From a virus (lineage: Duplodnaviria; Caudoviricetes), in IMG/VR virus record IMGVR_UViG_3300014204_000116, positions 95,891 through 159,890 of that record: DNA of 64,000 nucleotides; one strand, written 5' to 3'. Positions within the stretch are counted from its first letter, which is position 1, and each line of letters begins with the position of its first letter. The notes under the pieces were generated by a model. That model was not told the DNA's origin. It made no database searches and saw only the letters and a program-made list of their open reading frames with translations. A program made the translations under genes and the position numbers. Positions 13,967 to 57,381 of this stretch are shown here, in pieces.

Positions 13967-13995
13967 TTGACAACCTGTAGCATGTTTGATAAATT
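13967..13995 (+). promoter_or_regulatory. sigma70-type promoter (TTGACA-N17-TAAATT)
   Basis: ATG 14003 follows after 7 nt. Confidence 0.75.
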
Positions 13996-14002
13996 ACCCA
14001 GT

Positions 14003-14704
14003 ATGAATCCGTCGCGAATAACAACTCCGTTAGACAAGCAGATCGATGAGTGGTGGTTCAAGTACATGGACCGGCCACTCAAATGGCGCGTTTTTCTTCA
14101 TCGAACGCGTGACATTGAGAGGGAAAATCACGGCAAATTTGAGTCGCACTTCTACGCTGTGCCAGATCCAAAAAGCCTGAAAAAGCTTGAGCTGGATACC
14201 TTTCCTACAGAGCGCATCGAGGCCCCAACTTTCGAGGAATTGCGCGCTAAGGTCACAGCACTTATCAACTCTTGGCTCAACGCAACGTGGGAGAAGGTCA
14301 TTGTCGTATTCCTGGAAGAGTCCAGGGCGTGGCCGAATCTGGACAATACACGTATGATCAATGATCACAACGTCGTGAAGTTTGACTTTGTCGTGTGCCA
14401 CAGGTCCAGAGACGGGCAGTTTTGGAAGAAGCCTGAAAACACCTATGTTTCTCGGAGAATTGGCGATATGATCTGCACGACAGGGGAAACGGGGTCATTC
14501 CAGGCGCTCGTCTATTCCGAGGAGTTGCTAGCGTCTCTCAACGGCCTCAGCGAAAAGCTTAAAGTTTTGGCGTGCGGATTGCGCGAGCTGGTATTTAAAC
14601 GGCCTGAAGATTTCATACGGTGGTTCAGTGGCCCTATTCAGCTTCTGCCTACGGCCACAGTCGCATTCACTGCTCCACCCGTATCTACACCCGCATCCAC
14701 ATGA
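14003..14704 (+). CDS. hypothetical protein
   Basis: start set by promoter position. Confidence 0.7.
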   Translation: MNPSRITTPLDKQIDEWWFKYMDRPLKWRVFLHRTRDIERENHGKFESHFYAVPDPKSLKKLELDTFPTERIEAPTFEELRAKVTALINSWLNATWEKVIVVFLEESRAWPNLDNTRMINDHNVVKFDFVVCHRSRDGQFWKKPENTYVSRRIGDMICTTGETGSFQALVYSEELLASLNGLSEKLKVLACGLRELVFKRPEDFIRWFSGPIQLLPTATVAFTAPPVSTPAST

Positions 14705-15720: not shown

Positions 15721-15855
15721 ATGATAGCTTGTATTTGCGGAGGATTTGAACTCTTGCTGCTTGTTCCACTGGTCGGATGGGTTACACACTTGTTCCGCAG
15801 GAAGTGCTGCAAGAAGTCCTGCCAGTGTAAATGCCACGAGAAAGGAATTAAATGA
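15721..15855 (+). CDS. small Cys-rich membrane peptide (44 aa, not in ORF track)
   Basis: MIACICGGFELLLLVPLVGWVTHLFRRKCCKKSCQCKCHEKGIK; ATGA overlap with next gene. Confidence 0.6.
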   Translation: MIACICGGFELLLLVPLVGWVTHLFRRKCCKKSCQCKCHEKGIK

Positions 15856-16355
15856 ATAAGGAAAATGATGAGCTGCTGTGCGAGCGATATCCGAAGATTT
15901 TCGCTGATCGGCGAGCGGACATGCGCACTACGTGCATGTGCTGGGGATTCGAATGCGGAAACGGGTGGATGTGGCTGATCGACCAGTTGTGCAAAGCTCT
16001 CCAGGACAGAATCGATAATACCTCTCCTCATCCTCCCCAGGTTATCGCCGCGCAGGTGAAGGAGAAGTTTGGTAGCCTGCGCTTTTACATTTCCGGTGGT
16101 GATGAGGGGGCGCAAGGAATGATAGATCTGGCCGAGCACATGTCCATCAATATTTGCGAAGCGTGCGGATCTATCAAAAACGTGGGCCGCACTTCGGGAT
16201 GGATTTCTGTCAGGTGTGAAGATTGTGCCAAGGCGGAGGGCATAATGGACCGGTGGAAATCCAACGAGGAGTGGGCCAAATACGCGGCAGCACGCGAGCT
16301 TCAAGAGAAAGCTGCGGCTAAAAAGGCAGCATCCGCTATTGACACAACGAAATAA
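15852..16355 (+). CDS. conserved-type phage hypothetical protein
   Basis: GFECGNGW..QVKEKFGSLRFY..ICEACG..RCEDC. Confidence 0.75.
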   Translation: MNKENDELLCERYPKIFADRRADMRTTCMCWGFECGNGWMWLIDQLCKALQDRIDNTSPHPPQVIAAQVKEKFGSLRFYISGGDEGAQGMIDLAEHMSINICEACGSIKNVGRTSGWISVRCEDCAKAEGIMDRWKSNEEWAKYAAARELQEKAAAKKAASAIDTTK

Positions 16356-16367
16356 TTCGGGTAGGAT
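16339..16367 (+). promoter_or_regulatory. sigma70-type promoter (TTGACA-N17-TAGGAT)
   Basis: perfect -35 at 16339-16344, -10 at 16362-16367, predicted +1 near 16374. Confidence 0.7.
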
Positions 16368-16373
16368 CTGCCC

Positions 16374-16654
16374 ATGAATACGAGTCTGGCAACTTTTCAA
16401 TTCGGACTTAACAGTGACTCGGTATTCATGCGGGTGCGCCAAGCGCCCAGGGTCTCGCGACTAAATCGGAAGTGGCTCCGGGTCAAAGGTGTGTTGTGCA
16501 CCTTAATTGTTGGCTACTCCTTTGCCTTGGCAGACCGGCAGAGACAGCAATCTGCCGGTCAATTTTCCCACTCTAACCTGAGTGGGCGTTAGCAGAAAAC
16601 AAGGGAGAGACCGTCGTTAGCTGGCCATTTGGTCGGTGCGGTCTCTCCCTTTTT
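16374..16654 (+). ncRNA. candidate structured ncRNA (about 280 nt) or structured leader
   Basis: Own promoter, at least five hairpins, ends in a terminator-like stem; overlapping 72-aa ORF has no recognisable features. Confidence 0.5.
16601..16654 (+). terminator. intrinsic terminator-like hairpin
   Basis: AAGGGAGAGACCG/CGGTCTCTCCCTT 13-bp perfect stem ending in a T run. Confidence 0.7.
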
Positions 16655-16672
16655 ACCACGAAAAAATTGCAC

Positions 16673-17062
16673 ATGAATAGGCCGATCCCAACGAAGAGGC
16701 AAGCACTCTACGACTACGACACTTCCAGGGCAGCGCACAATCAGCAGAAATCGCGCGACCCAAGAGCGGCACTGACGCCGGTCATGGTCACTTCCGTAGG
16801 TAGGAAATACTTTTCGTGCACCGTGCAAGGATTTCCCATCGGGAAAACCCACACAACCCTGTATAATTTGTCGGACTGGAGCCAGTGCACAGACACGGTG
16901 CCAACCCATCAACTTTTTGTCTCGCCAGACGATTATGCCAACTTAATAGAGGAAAGGACTATCTGGCGCACCCTGCGAGAGGTATTTTCGTGCGGTGGCA
17001 TTAACACGCGGCGTATTCCGTTGGCGAATCTCCGTGAGATCCTGCGCCTCGTGCAAAAATGA
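16673..17062 (+). CDS. hypothetical protein
   Basis: VTSVGRKYF motif; ORF tiling. Confidence 0.65.
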   Translation: MNRPIPTKRQALYDYDTSRAAHNQQKSRDPRAALTPVMVTSVGRKYFSCTVQGFPIGKTHTTLYNLSDWSQCTDTVPTHQLFVSPDDYANLIEERTIWRTLREVFSCGGINTRRIPLANLREILRLVQK

Positions 17063-17840: not shown

Positions 17841-18491
17841 ATGAAGATCGTAGAACCACACGCCATAATTGAAACACCAATACATGGCCAATTTGCCACC
17901 GATATCCTGGTGCACCTGGAGCGCTGTGCCCGCACATGCTATAAGAGCGAGGGCTACATCACCCCCGGCAGCGCGCCGGGGTTTATCAGCAACTTGATCC
18001 GCATGAAGAAGCACGAGTCTATCATCGAGCATGCGAGTGCCACTGTCCGGTTTATCTGTGATCGTGGCGTCACTCACGAAATTGTTCGGCATCGGCTCGC
18101 GGCTTACTCTCAGGAGTCTACCCGGTACTGCAATTACACCAATGATAAGTTCGACAACGAGATCACCGTGATTCGTCCTCTATTCTTCGAGGAAGGAAGC
18201 GAGGACTGGAATGACTGGTATGCGGCATGTAAGGAGGCCGAGGCGCGTTACATGAAGCTCATCAGCCGGGGTCGGACTCCCCAAGAGGCCAGATCTGTGC
18301 TGCCTAACAGCCTCAAGACCGAACTCGTCATGACGTGCAACATGCGGGAGTGGAGGCACGTTTTCTCACTACGCACGTCATCCAGAGCCCATCCTCAGAT
18401 GACCCAGGTCATGCGCCCACTCCTGGCCGAGTTTAAAACGCACCTGGAGCCGCTGTTCGGCGATCTGGGATGGGGCGTTACCGTATCCTAA
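17841..18491 (+). CDS. thyX: FAD-dependent thymidylate synthase
   Basis: HESIIEH, RGVTHEIVRHRLAAYSQESTRY (RHRx7S), EARSVLP, NMREWRH. Confidence 0.95.
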   Translation: MKIVEPHAIIETPIHGQFATDILVHLERCARTCYKSEGYITPGSAPGFISNLIRMKKHESIIEHASATVRFICDRGVTHEIVRHRLAAYSQESTRYCNYTNDKFDNEITVIRPLFFEEGSEDWNDWYAACKEAEARYMKLISRGRTPQEARSVLPNSLKTELVMTCNMREWRHVFSLRTSSRAHPQMTQVMRPLLAEFKTHLEPLFGDLGWGVTVS

Positions 18492-20147: not shown

Positions 20148-20176
20148 TTGACACCGCTTCTGTAAGCTGCTATACT
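20148..20176 (+). promoter_or_regulatory. sigma70-type promoter (TTGACA-N17-TATACT, TGn extension)
   Basis: ATG 20185 follows after 8 nt. Confidence 0.85.
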
Positions 20177-20184
20177 CCTGGTCA

Positions 20185-21030
20185 ATGAAGCGACAATTTG
20201 TCATACACAATCGTTCGGCATTTCGCGACGAGGAGATCATTCCCCTCCTAAACTTCTCCTGGGACTGCGCTTGGGAGGCAGCTCCAACGGGCCATACCCA
20301 GATCAATCAACACCCGAGGTATAGCCGGTCACAGCCCCGCTACGGGGTATTTCTTACCGCAGAGGAACTGGACTTTCAACAGAGGCAGAATTGCATTTGG
20401 CATGTCCATCTCATAAAGAGCATACACATGCGTGCCGGGATGGCTTACGTCGGTTCGGGGCGTGTGCGCATTCGTCTTGGCGATCCTAAGAAGATCTCGG
20501 TTACATGGCCACGAAATGAAACCTATGGCAAGTTCAAAGATATGCCGGAGTTTCAGATTCGTTCCTGGCGCGAGATGATTATCAGGATTGCCGCACACGA
20601 ATTTGCGCATCTTACTGGCCACGACGGAGTAAAAGCTGGCGAAGAAAAGGCTGAGCTTACGGCGTGGGACGCGGTCGAAAAGTATCGCCAGATGCAGGCG
20701 GAAATAGACGGTGAAATAGATCGTCGGTGTGCCTGCGTAGACAAAAAGCGCGAATGTGCCGATGCCCGCGAAAGGGCTAAATTCGAGGAGAAGAACTCCA
20801 CTCAATTCAAGTTGGATAAGCTGGCCAAGGCCGAGGCCATATGGACCAGGAAGCTGCGGCTAGCGTCTACGAAGCTGAGTAAAATTCGGCGTTCTCGCTC
20901 CTGCATACTCGCGGCGCAGAGGCGCAGGCAGGCCGTTGCAAGTGATCCTTGCCCGCCACCACCGGCAGTCGATGCCGCGCCTGTTGAACAAAATATGCCC
21001 GCAGAAGTGTGCCCGGAATCTGTTCTTTGA
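20185..21030 (+). CDS. HExxH zinc-metallopeptidase-like protein with C-terminal coiled coil
   Basis: IAAHEFAHL..EEKAE. Confidence 0.6.
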   Translation: MKRQFVIHNRSAFRDEEIIPLLNFSWDCAWEAAPTGHTQINQHPRYSRSQPRYGVFLTAEELDFQQRQNCIWHVHLIKSIHMRAGMAYVGSGRVRIRLGDPKKISVTWPRNETYGKFKDMPEFQIRSWREMIIRIAAHEFAHLTGHDGVKAGEEKAELTAWDAVEKYRQMQAEIDGEIDRRCACVDKKRECADARERAKFEEKNSTQFKLDKLAKAEAIWTRKLRLASTKLSKIRRSRSCILAAQRRRQAVASDPCPPPPAVDAAPVEQNMPAEVCPESVL

Positions 21031-22532: not shown

Positions 22533-22838
22533 GTGATTAGCCAGGAGATTACACTTACACCGGAACAGATTAACTGGGGCGTCTATGTGCAAAATCACAT
22601 AGACGCTTTTGGTTCTTGCCTCTACCCGTCGTGGTGCATACGGGCGATTTTCAAGACTAACTTCGAGGCCTTAAAGAGGATATACGCCGACAACCTGTGG
22701 GCTCTGCACTACGACGACGTACTCGATCTTTCGCTGATTACTGATGCCAGTCCTGGTGCAAGTAAACCGAACTCAATTCGTGAGGTCCAGCGCCGACTGC
22801 GCAAAGTTCACAGGGACAAGTGCCAGGGGAGTAGTTAG
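22533..22838 (+). CDS. hypothetical protein
   Basis: ORF tiling. Confidence 0.5.
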   Translation: MISQEITLTPEQINWGVYVQNHIDAFGSCLYPSWCIRAIFKTNFEALKRIYADNLWALHYDDVLDLSLITDASPGASKPNSIREVQRRLRKVHRDKCQGSS

Positions 22839-27423: not shown

Positions 27424-27710
27424 ACAATTTGATGACTGAAAAAATTATGATACACGCGGGACAAGTGGTGAATACACTCCTGGAGCAGGGTGGTGATGCA
27501 GAGGTTGAGTATGATACTGTCGATGTGGACTCCATGCCACATACGGCCTGGATGGTTCGGGCCATAGGCTCATCGCCTACGCAATACGTAGCCAGGGACG
27601 TGGCTCATACGCCCGAACTGGCACGCCAGAGGGCGCACGAGAAGGCCCGGTCGTTAGGCATGACAATTACGCGCGAGATAGATCGCTCTAAAAGTTCACC
27701 ACGCAGTTGA
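27420..27710 (+). CDS. small protein with AGQVVNTLLEQ tag
   Basis: overlaps polyprotein stop; tag motif. Confidence 0.6.
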   Translation: MNNLMTEKIMIHAGQVVNTLLEQGGDAEVEYDTVDVDSMPHTAWMVRAIGSSPTQYVARDVAHTPELARQRAHEKARSLGMTITREIDRSKSSPRS

Positions 27711-27734
27711 CATCACAATCGGAGGGATTATGCT
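27707..27734 (+). promoter_or_regulatory. sigma70-type promoter (TTGACA-N16-TATGCT)
   Basis: ATG 27744 follows after 9 nt. Confidence 0.55.
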
Positions 27735-27743
27735 TTTAGGCAT

Positions 27744-28265
27744 ATGAGTTTAGAGAAGTTTATGGACGGTATGCGAGCAGCCGCAACGGTTGCTCTGTGG
27801 AGGAAGGAAGGCTATCGGGTTGCTGCAACAAACGGGTGTTTTGACATACTGCACGCCGGGCACGTAGGATCTCTGGAGTGTGCCAAGAGGCAGGGAGATA
27901 GGCTTATTGTTGGCATCAATACCGATGAATCTGTTCAAAAGCTTAAAGGGCCAACACGCCCAATTAACGCGCTATACGAACGCGTTGTTGTGCTATGCAG
28001 CCTGGAGTGTGTCGATCTAGTAGTGCCAGTGCCGGAGACTGACATGTGCCAATTTCTTGAGATTACACGGCCCGATACCTGGATTAAGTTTGGGTATACC
28101 CTCCAAACTTTAAACCAGGCGGAAGTGGCCATGGCCAATAAGCTTCATATCAAGATTGAAACCGTCCCGATTACGGACGATGTCTCTACAACCAGGATAA
28201 TTGATAACATCCTGGCAGCGCGTAGCGGGGCAAAGCCTCTCCCGCCTCCGAAGTTCTACTCATAG
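27744..28265 (+). CDS. sugar-phosphate nucleotidyltransferase, RfaE domain II/HldC-like (heptose-1-P adenylyltransferase family)
   Basis: ATNGCFDILHAGH, LIVGINTDESVQKLKGPTRPIN, VSTTRII. Confidence 0.88.
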   Translation: MSLEKFMDGMRAAATVALWRKEGYRVAATNGCFDILHAGHVGSLECAKRQGDRLIVGINTDESVQKLKGPTRPINALYERVVVLCSLECVDLVVPVPETDMCQFLEITRPDTWIKFGYTLQTLNQAEVAMANKLHIKIETVPITDDVSTTRIIDNILAARSGAKPLPPPKFYS

Positions 28266-33482: not shown

Positions 33483-33820
33483 GTGATTTTGATGAAGCAT
33501 TTTCCGACGTAGTAAGAGCCGAGGCTAAGCGCAGGCCAGTGTGGGTAATTGGCCTAAGGAACTTTCCTGGTGAATTCTACCCGGTCCTAGCCTGGGCACC
33601 TTGTCTTGGGTTCATACATGGCCCACCGGTCAATGGAAAACAACCCGTATTTGTGCCATCAGCAAGCGAGGGGCATCAAGTTTGGAATAGACCCCTTGAT
33701 GAAGTCTACGAAACCGAAGAAGCGGCTGAAAAAGGATCAGAGGAGAAGGGTAAAAAACAAGCCGAAGAATTCAAGTCCATGCTTAACAGTTTCCGCCCTT
33801 TGCCTAAAATAGATCCCTAA
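33479..33820 (+). CDS. hypothetical protein
   Basis: ATGA/TAATG overlaps. Confidence 0.55.
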
Positions 33821-34059
33821 TGAATGCAATAGAAGCGCCAATACCCCTCGAAGAAGAATTTCCTGCGCTGGCTGAAGGCTTGAGCCAAGTGGCGAACGGG
33901 ACACACCCGACAGTGCAGACCGTTCTTGCCGAGAAGAGGGCTGTGCGCATCCGAAACAAGATCGGCCAATGGCACATGAAGATGCTGAAACAACCTGGCC
34001 GCAATGAACCGTGCCATTGCGGAAGTGGCAAAAAGTTTAAGAAATGCTGCGGTCAGTGA
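33820..34059 (+). CDS. SEC-C motif protein
   Basis: [19 protein letters not shown]. Confidence 0.85.
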
Positions 34060-37106: not shown

Positions 37107-37379
37107 CTAAAAACGAATCCACTTTTTATCTGGGCACTGCTCCGTGGCCAGCGAAGTTTTTAGGTATACGAGGCATTTGCACATCCTGCACCAATAGCCT
37201 TTTCTTCGGGGACATGCCTGACATTTAGACATCCTGTTGGCCTTGATGTTGGCCGGGACAATTGGAAATCCGTTCAAAGACCACCGGACTTGGGCCATAG
37301 CGAAACTGGCCAATACCTGATTCCAAGTAAGATCAGGCATTGAATACTGACGATCACAGCACGGTATAACTTGGCTCAT
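37107..37379 (-). CDS. small Cys-rich protein (DUF6171-like)
   Basis: RMSKCQACP..CRMCKC..KT.LATEQCPDKKW. Confidence 0.65.
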   Translation of the reverse strand: MSQVIPCCDRQYSMPDLTWNQVLASFAMAQVRWSLNGFPIVPANIKANRMSKCQACPRRKGYWCRMCKCLVYLKTSLATEQCPDKKWIRF

Positions 37380-37434
37380 GTGCTATCTAGCGATAAATGT
37401 CAGTTGTCTACAAAATTTGCTTGTTCTTTACAAT

Positions 37435-37518
37435 AGGTGCTGTGGGTGTTTGTGGTTCGGCCTAAAGGCCCTGACCGCGTGTTTCATGTCTTACCTTGGA
37501 ACTAGCCCCACAGCACCT
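37435..37518 (+). ncRNA. candidate three-way-junction structured RNA or leader
   Basis: 12-bp perfect closing stem AGGTGCTGTGGG/CCCACAGCACCT enclosing two hairpins; intergenic. Confidence 0.45.
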
Positions 37519-37533
37519 TTACTCTATGCGGAT

Positions 37534-37836
37534 ATGCAAAAACTCGTCGTAGTCACAGTGTTAGCGCTGTTGCTTACAGGCTGCATGTCCTTTGACAAGG
37601 GCGGAACCCGCCATTACATTTGTTTCGGCGTTGGTATTGTCAGCGTGAATACCAACAATCCAACCGCTACAGTGGTAAAGTCAACAACAGTAGGGATCGG
37701 TGCATCGAGTCTTCCAATGTCTCGGTGCACCGTTGGATTTTCAGAATCTGTGGCTGTTATGCTACAGACCAACCAACCAGTAGTTATCGAAGTGGAGCAG
37801 GCTCCTGGAAAGCCCTTCCGTGTGGAGACAAAATGA
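37534..37836 (+). CDS. lipoprotein
   Basis: MQKLVVVTVLALLLTGC lipobox. Confidence 0.75.
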   Translation: MQKLVVVTVLALLLTGCMSFDKGGTRHYICFGVGIVSVNTNNPTATVVKSTTVGIGASSLPMSRCTVGFSESVAVMLQTNQPVVIEVEQAPGKPFRVETK

Positions 37837-56812: not shown

Positions 56813-57381
56813 AATGGTTTTTCGAAAACGGAGAATGCTCGCAGTCTGTTGTTGAAGCCACACATGACGCCGACCACGGCGACAAAAATTGCATCGGGCG
56901 GAGGACTCGGTATAATGTAATGAATGATCCCAACTCGTCCGCCAGGCGGTAGGACCGCAAAGGCATTTTCTATGAGCTTGTTTGGCTTTGGATACACATC
57001 TGATCCTACTGCGTAGTGGGCGGCATCAACCTCGCTGTAAGGTGGATCGATGAGAATGCCTGCCCACGGGACTCGTGCACCAGAGCCAGATGGGCTGAGG
57101 GGTAGGGTGTTGTCCCACGGGAGCCGGGCATCCTGTAAGAAGTCGGGCTCACACCTTGGGTCAAGATCGAGTGTTTTGTCGTTTGGCCCAAATCCACGTT
57201 TGTATGGGTATAGCTTAGCCAACCCACCACACACATGCAGCACTGGATCGGTTATCTTGCACCCCAGGAGGGCGCGGGCACGCTCGGGAAATCCGCCGAG
57301 GTAGGCACCGTAATATTTTTGGCCTCCTTTGAGCTTGGCTCGCGCCAGAATCCACATGTCGCATATCGGTCTATAACTCAT
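56809..57381 (-). CDS. putative amino-methyltransferase-like protein (DPPY)
   Basis: VLHVCGG..LDLDP..DAR..ILIDPPYS. Confidence 0.6.
   Translation of the reverse strand: MSYRPICDMWILARAKLKGGQKYYGAYLGGFPERARALLGCKITDPVLHVCGGLAKLYPYKRGFGPNDKTLDLDPRCEPDFLQDARLPWDNTLPLSPSGSGARVPWAGILIDPPYSEVDAAHYAVGSDVYPKPNKLIENAFAVLPPGGRVGIIHYIIPSPPPDAIFVAVVGVMCGFNNRLRAFSVFEKPL

Follow-up and report, generated by a model that had tools for sequence, protein, structure and literature searches.

The DNA analyzed here is a 64,000-nucleotide (nt) window corresponding to bases 95,891 to 159,890 of the linear 159,890-bp IMG/VR virus record IMGVR_UViG_3300014204_000116. The record is ∼72% complete, has a G+C content of 51% and represents a tailed phage (it encodes baseplate-wedge and tail-fibre proteins) that is very distant from cultured phages, the top baseplate match being 25 to 33% identical. 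Our subject is a structured unit at window positions 16339 to 16655 on the plus strand, which also carries all the genes around it. Upstream lies a gene for a Cys-rich 167-aa protein with paired-cysteine motifs (15852 to 16355, stop codon at 16353 to 16355), and downstream a gene for a 129-aa protein (16673 to 17062) that matches the Phage_ProQ_C_like domain (PF24203, E = 5.6e-8; phrog_3032). The unit consists of a promoter, a multi-hairpin body and an intrinsic terminator, and includes a 72-codon open reading frame (ORF; 16374 to 16592, plus strand) whose ATG is at the inferred +1 and whose TAG stop lies 8 nt ahead of the terminator stem. The initial annotation, which had correctly noted this ORF, proposed the unit as a novel phage noncoding RNA (ncRNA). 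The three-part architecture is real and, by its statistics, exceptional, whereas the ncRNA class was not confirmed, no homolog having been found.

The promoter is of the σ70 type. A consensus scan recovered a −35 hexamer TTGACA at 16339 to 16344, a 17-nt spacer and a −10 hexamer TAGGAT at 16362 to 16367 on the plus strand, a 10/12 match that agrees with the promoter first annotated. The −35 element falls within the 3′ end of the 167-aa gene, and from the promoter spacing we infer that transcription starts at A16374. Perfect TTGACA hexamers with an acceptable −10 occur at 14 sites in the record (12 on the gene strand), compared to 3.7 ± 1.4 in dinucleotide shuffles. This ∼4-fold enrichment indicates that most of the perfect-TTGACA sites are real promoters. 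At six other promoter-like sites with perfect or near-perfect −35 elements, the −10 lies 7 to 9 nt ahead of a start codon, and the ORFs behind these promoters encode 608, 317, 233, 281, 173 and 79 aa. Shine–Dalgarno sites precede 20% of the phage genes versus a background of 16%; the AGGA inside the −10 hexamer, 7 nt ahead of ATG 16374, was rejected as such a site on these grounds. Thus, given promoters 7 to 9 nt before starts and no Shine–Dalgarno enrichment, leaderless early genes appear to be the rule, and the early mRNAs of the phage seem to have little or no leader. Whatever the 16374 unit proves to be, host-type promoters that run straight into start codons are relevant to annotating this phage and to guessing its host.

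The RNA predicted to arise from this promoter is exceptionally structured. RNAfold assigned 16374 to 16660 a minimum free energy of −123 kcal/mol (z = −6.27), a stability reached by none of 200 dinucleotide shuffles, and the body without the terminator still gave z = −4.0. The minus strand (reverse complement) folds 17 kcal/mol more weakly (z = −4.3), which points to an RNA on the plus strand and is as expected if plus-strand G–U pairs matter. When the whole record was scanned in 150-nt steps of sequence (2,130 windows of that length), the two top plus-strand windows, at 16536 (z = −4.36) and 16461 (z = −3.73), both fell within the unit, and both were outside the minus-strand top 15. This agrees with the initial annotation, which saw no comparable hairpin density elsewhere in the 64,000-nt stretch.

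Pair probabilities (P) taken from the partition function were 0.83 to 1.00 for the main helices, and each stem of the initial annotation was recovered. In the first helix, P1, the 5′-terminal AUGAAUACGAGUC (16374 to 16386) pairs with 16416 to 16429, forming 13 bp with one bulge (P = 0.86 to 0.95) and a 29-nt internal loop, and sequestering the 5′ AUG. Two small hairpins follow, one of 6 bp with a pentaloop at 16432 to 16448 (P = 0.93) and one of 4 bp at 16451 to 16462 (P = 0.83). A composite stem-loop at 16468 to 16520 has lower helices of 3, 6 and 3 bp (P = 0.74, 0.90 and 0.43, respectively) and is capped by a 7-bp hairpin at 16486 to 16504 (P = 0.95). Next are a perfect GC-rich hairpin of 10 bp with an 8-nt loop (16533 to 16560, P = 1.00) and a perfect 7-bp hairpin with a 6-nt loop (16567 to 16586, P = 0.98). 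The GC-rich hairpin is followed directly by AAUUUU and could be a weak internal terminator; termination at 16533 to 16566 would yield an RNA of ∼190 nt without the stop codon of the 72-codon ORF.

The unit ends in an intrinsic terminator (16601 to 16655, plus strand) with a 14-bp outer stem formed by 16601 to 16614 and 16638 to 16651, an inner 7-bp hairpin at 16620 to 16637 and a terminal TTTTT. The outer stem was originally given as 13 bp. The record has 133 terminator-like hairpins, of which this one (−35.4 kcal/mol) ranks first in strength, the second being −29 and typical ones −18 to −23 kcal/mol; on the minus strand, a T-rich tract follows it as well. Strong plus-strand terminators are rare in this region, with the next at 22576 to 22609.

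The T-run ends at ∼16655, and ATG 16673 of the ProQ_C-like gene is only 18 nt farther. By sequence reading, no −10-like hexamer fits between the terminator and this ATG, and the consensus scan lists no plus-strand promoter-like site between 16367 and 17467. GTAGTTA(A), a motif that recurs upstream of genes in the record, is absent between the terminator and 16673, and a TTGCAC motif considered as a shared promoter for the downstream gene was rejected as it is not enriched. With no recognizable promoter after the terminator, the tightly packed plus-strand block that is headed by the ProQ_C-like gene and includes thyX (17841 to 18491) must be transcribed by readthrough. The polymerases concerned would start at the 16339 promoter or at the upstream promoter at 13967; transcripts of the upstream operon, which carries the 167-aa gene, also enter the structured region. 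Hence, whatever else the element does, its terminator probably also gates the ProQ_C-like to thyX block. The ProQ_C-like frame itself is open back to 16577, through the terminator, and this extension has no start codon.

We analyzed the 72-codon ORF for signs of coding. Its codon log-odds score was −0.059, compared to 0.22 ± 0.10 for 72-codon pieces of long ORFs, and only 0.8% of gene pieces scored lower. In a cross-validated 3-periodic Markov model, it fell at the 1.6th percentile of gene pieces. Its codon usage is thus in the lowest 1 to 2% of gene segments, and no coding signal stands out in any of the six frames, frame 0 being no better than the others. When small ORFs were ranked, it sat with antisense and noise ORFs, well under the likely small genes. 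The predicted protein lacks Glu, and its content of Arg, Ser and Leu (36% together) resembles that of a random translation. Its layout is a basic N terminus, one 15-residue hydrophobic stretch and a polar tail. Its ESM recognition score was 1522, while 2300 is reached by 91% of known-family proteins. The AlphaFold2 (AF2) model was of low confidence, with a predicted local distance difference test (pLDDT) score of 65 and a helix at residues 30 to 50 reaching 84 to 89. No Pfam or PHROG model matched the protein, a word-indexed search of 5.8 billion clusters found no relative, and an exhaustive phmmer search of 1.84 billion representatives found only the protein itself. Translation would also have to contend with P1: opening nt 1 to 12 costs 12.3 kcal/mol (within the first 60 nt), versus 0.8 to 5.4 kcal/mol for nine other promoter-proximal starts. 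A −1 frameshift that would fuse this ORF to the ProQ_C-like frame was also considered and rejected, no slippery heptamer being seen in the 16577 to 16592 overlap.

The reading that we place first, with a confidence that stops a little short of even, is that the unit specifies a discrete early RNA with selection on its fold rather than an ordinary protein, so that its function would lie at the RNA level. In the corresponding model, host σ70 RNA polymerase would make an early transcript of some 280 nt, from ∼16374 to the U-tract at ∼16655. Long helices would enclose both ends of this RNA (P1 the 5′ end, the terminator the 3′ end), with four more stable stem-loops between them, a build that suggests a nuclease-resistant, protein- or RNA-binding ncRNA. 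The strong terminator would set how much early transcription reaches the ProQ_C-like to thyX genes, both that begun at the promoter of the unit and that arriving from the upstream operon. The transcript ends, the stability, the downstream gating, a role in trans and a partnership with the Tudor-like ProQ_C-like protein are all features that we infer. An extended form of this model, which we consider unlikely, is that the unit is the first member seen of a new class of phage multi-helix ncRNA of ∼280 nt. Such an RNA would be early, helix-locked at both ends and trans-acting (for example, a decoy or scaffold), would possibly work with the ProQ_C-like protein, and would carry a terminator that gates nucleotide-metabolism genes. 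If the unit does function as an RNA, it would be a large structured ncRNA joining the very few known from lytic or large phages, and would come as a defined unit, with promoter, ends and fold, next to a candidate protein partner.

Several observations weigh against an RNA-level function. ATG 16374 is placed like a leaderless gene start, with a 6-nt gap after the −10 (7 to 9 nt at the other promoters); the probability of a chance ATG at +1 is ∼1/16 and, jointly with an open frame, ∼0.4 to 1%, the frame staying open for 72 codons in 6.8% of dinucleotide shuffles. A stop codon 8 nt before a terminator is the usual gene-plus-terminator layout. The coding statistics are also modest under the better model, the Markov one, in which the density ratio in favor of noncoding is ∼3.6, and the Pfam-confirmed neighbor likewise scores low (0.046 to 0.056). 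Moreover, no homolog was found, so no covariation stands behind the helices, and the ncRNA partner classes tested, reverse transcriptase and the FinO domain, were not found in the record.

Much of this evidence would fit instead an ordinary small early gene, in which a leaderless mRNA encodes a 72-aa orphan protein and is structured by chance or selection, a possibility that we regard as doubtful yet serious. The structure could then stabilize the mRNA or, via the sequestered AUG, throttle a dose-sensitive or toxic product. Under the genome-wide leaderless design, with Shine–Dalgarno sites not above background, the ATG is where a start is expected, and the ORF occupies the transcript from +1 almost to the terminator. 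The neighboring genes are orphans too, and the AF2 helix at residues 30 to 50 is confident. Against this, the coding region of such a gene would hold the most structured plus-strand RNA of the 160-kb record, its 5′ AUG would be far less accessible than other promoter-proximal starts, and its product would combine outlying codon usage with a random-like composition and low ESM recognition. We also considered and set aside a type I toxin–antitoxin system: the product has 72 aa, its single hydrophobic stretch, of 15 residues, is shorter than a confident membrane helix would require, and the consensus scan lists no minus-strand promoter-like site for an antitoxin RNA within or just downstream of the unit. 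If the unit nonetheless is a gene, it offers a leaderless mRNA in which a 13-bp helix hides the start codon. Overall, two improbable signals occur together, an outlying fold and a gene-like start that opens a long frame, and we judge a small, leaderless orphan gene and a structured RNA, noncoding or regulatory, to be roughly level, with the RNA slightly ahead. It is ahead because four independent lines argue against an ordinary protein, namely the fold, the buried AUG, the codon usage and the absence of relatives; the two stay roughly level because priors for phages, in whose genomes small orphan ORFs far outnumber ncRNAs, strongly favor the former.

The position of the terminator bears on a further alternative, already raised in the initial annotation, namely that the 72-codon frame is a translated leader. 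Here the frame would be read as a sensor, and the progress of the ribosome or a phage antiterminator would decide readthrough into the ProQ_C-like to thyX block. Such an attenuator would explain together the ATG at +1, the open frame, its unconstrained codons, the structure and a terminator 18 nt before promoterless-looking genes. Consistent with this, nascent RNA ending at 16635 can fold differently (−99.7 kcal/mol), in a way that involves the 5′ arm of the terminator. The geometry, however, does not support the mechanism well. With the stop 8 nt before the stem, a terminating ribosome would cover at most about the first 2 bp, as estimated from the size of the ribosome footprint. By sequence reading we see a single antiterminator-like pairing, of 7 bp, whereas the terminator has 14+7 bp and its two stems, outer and inner, contribute ∼22 kcal/mol to the stability of the fold. 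In addition, 72 codons is long for a leader peptide, and the translation shows no run of regulatory codons. The gene-like placement of the ATG at +1 added weight to the leaderless ORF proposed in the initial annotation. We consider the translated leader or attenuator quite improbable.

We searched extensively for relatives of the RNA. Rfam 15 covariance models at gathering thresholds, in a test that took in transfer-messenger RNA (tmRNA), RNase P, signal recognition particle (SRP) RNA, 6S, pRNA, group I/II introns, riboswitches and HEARO, gave no match in the whole window. A permissive search returned mir-9201 as the best match, with 19.4 bits compared to the 95.5 needed (E = 0.25), a chance hairpin. 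ARAGORN found no tRNA or tmRNA in the window. These results agree with the initial impression that hallmarks of tRNA, tmRNA, RNase P and SRP RNA are lacking. Sensitive (distant) blastn against 50,697 phage records found no homologs. At 160 loci that carry relatives of the upstream gene and were drawn from IMG/VR and JGI metagenomes, the RNA, the 72-aa ORF and the ProQ_C-like gene were all absent by blastn, nhmmer and tblastn. The sole other copy that we found is 100% identical and hence provides no variation; it lies on a Logan contig of 2,550 bp. Exact hairpin-pattern scans of viral and genome collections yielded two matches, both unrelated terminators without flanking similarity. A covariance model of core R1 (171 nt, 51 bp) was run on 50 records, where it matched nothing but R1, and on 84 loci, where all matches were hairpins selected by the pattern scans. 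No repeats of the structured region occur elsewhere in the genome, and a search for antisense targets in the phage genome returned nothing beyond chance 11- to 15-nt matches. As a singleton, the element carries limited weight. Two known ncRNA systems were also rejected. For a retron msr–msd, the 160-kb record (∼72% complete) contains no match to the reverse transcriptase model RVT_1. For a FinO/ProQ ligand–chaperone pair, it contains no PF04352 match, only the adjoining ProQ_C-like PF24203.

The absence of conservation in these searches would also be expected if the unit had no dedicated function and were the structured 3′ untranslated tail and terminator with which the upstream operon ends, its promoter match and open frame having arisen by coincidence. 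By chance, ∼2 to 4 of the 14 perfect-TTGACA matches are expected, and 6.8% of shuffles keep the frame open. This explanation nevertheless needs promoter, ATG at +1, open frame and extreme fold to coincide; the fold is a genome-wide, strand-specific outlier, and 245 extra nt are costly in a tightly packed phage genome. We therefore consider it very unlikely.

Among known systems, the closest to an RNA-level function are small or medium phage ncRNAs that each have a promoter and an intrinsic terminator to themselves, such as λ OOP, the P1/P7 c4 RNA, the P4 CI RNA and prophage small RNAs (sRNAs). For larger phages, a report on jumbo phage PA5oct includes ncRNA candidates (PMC7318152), and one on phiKZ includes a search for ncRNAs (PMC8244752). 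Like phage ncRNAs, the unit is a stand-alone promoter-to-terminator element with strong secondary structure and no protein homologs; unlike them, it has no Rfam match, contains an ATG-initiated 72-codon frame and shows no antisense target beyond chance. It is also longer and richer in helices than typical base-pairing sRNAs.

A second resemblance is to the terminated leaders of lambdoid phages, which include the λ pR′–tR′ "6S" RNA (whose extension needs Q antitermination), the nut sites before tR1 and tL1 and the HK022 put RNAs. The unit shares with these a short structured transcript, a constitutive start and a strong terminator just before later genes, which would be expressed by readthrough. 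In contrast to them, no boxA/boxB-like or put-like motif was recognized here, and the likeness is in layout only. A third resemblance is to leaderless or structured small-ORF mRNAs, exemplified by λ cI from pRM and by the type I toxin mRNAs hok and tisB, in which the translation start is sequestered. As in these mRNAs, an ATG lies at the inferred +1, a terminator follows the short ORF, and the helix-locked 5′ end would limit translation. Unlike in these mRNAs, the 72-codon frame has no coding signature or relatives, and its 72-aa product with only a 15-residue hydrophobic stretch does not resemble typical toxins of <60 aa. Finally, the ligands of ProQ/FinO-type chaperones are structured RNAs bound via their terminator hairpin (PMC9977716). 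The unit resembles these as a structured RNA with a strong terminator beside a gene with a domain named for the ProQ C terminus (Tudor-like). It differs in that the record lacks a FinO/ProQ N-terminal (terminator-binding) domain, adjacency being the only link here.

The two flanking genes differ in their distribution. The 167-aa Cys-rich protein belongs to a widespread phage protein family without a Pfam or PHROG model, present at 296 viral and >511 metagenome loci with relatives ≤56% identical; some of the large contigs matching this family are 120 to 350 kb. The ProQ_C-like protein has no relative in the viral, metagenome and genome collections, the phage records or 50 large viral records. 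Its AF2 model (pLDDT 51), like that of the 72-aa product, is too poor for fold comparison. A PDB sequence search was empty. The closest relative of ThyX is 47% identical, and synteny is absent; neighboring genes are likewise orphans.

Other elements were noted elsewhere in the record. Further σ70-like promoters in the window include those at 13967 to 14005, 20148 to 20187, 27707 to 27746 and 33783 to 33822. The GTAGTTA(A) motif lies 4 to 10 nt ahead of gene starts, often reading ...GTATG, at ∼20 sites in the record, examples in the window being 22831, 30275 (minus strand), 38572, 45775 and 53634. There are 33 copies compared to ∼20 expected; most are at gene starts, have no −35 element and frequently come directly after a terminator. 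The motif is probably a phage-specific (perhaps late) promoter or initiation signal. A second σ70-like promoter that leads into structure, TTGACA-17-TACATT, precedes a structured 174 nt (−60.1 kcal/mol, z = −3.63) at 37592 to 37800 on the plus strand; unlike the 16374 unit, this stretch is within a positively scoring coding frame (ORF 37378 to 37836). Finally, record positions ∼57,150 to 57,300, 38.7 kb before the window, are highly structured on both strands and contain a near-perfect 14-bp palindromic hairpin (−23 kcal/mol) that resembles a bidirectional terminator and adjoins a perfect-TTGACA promoter at 57322.

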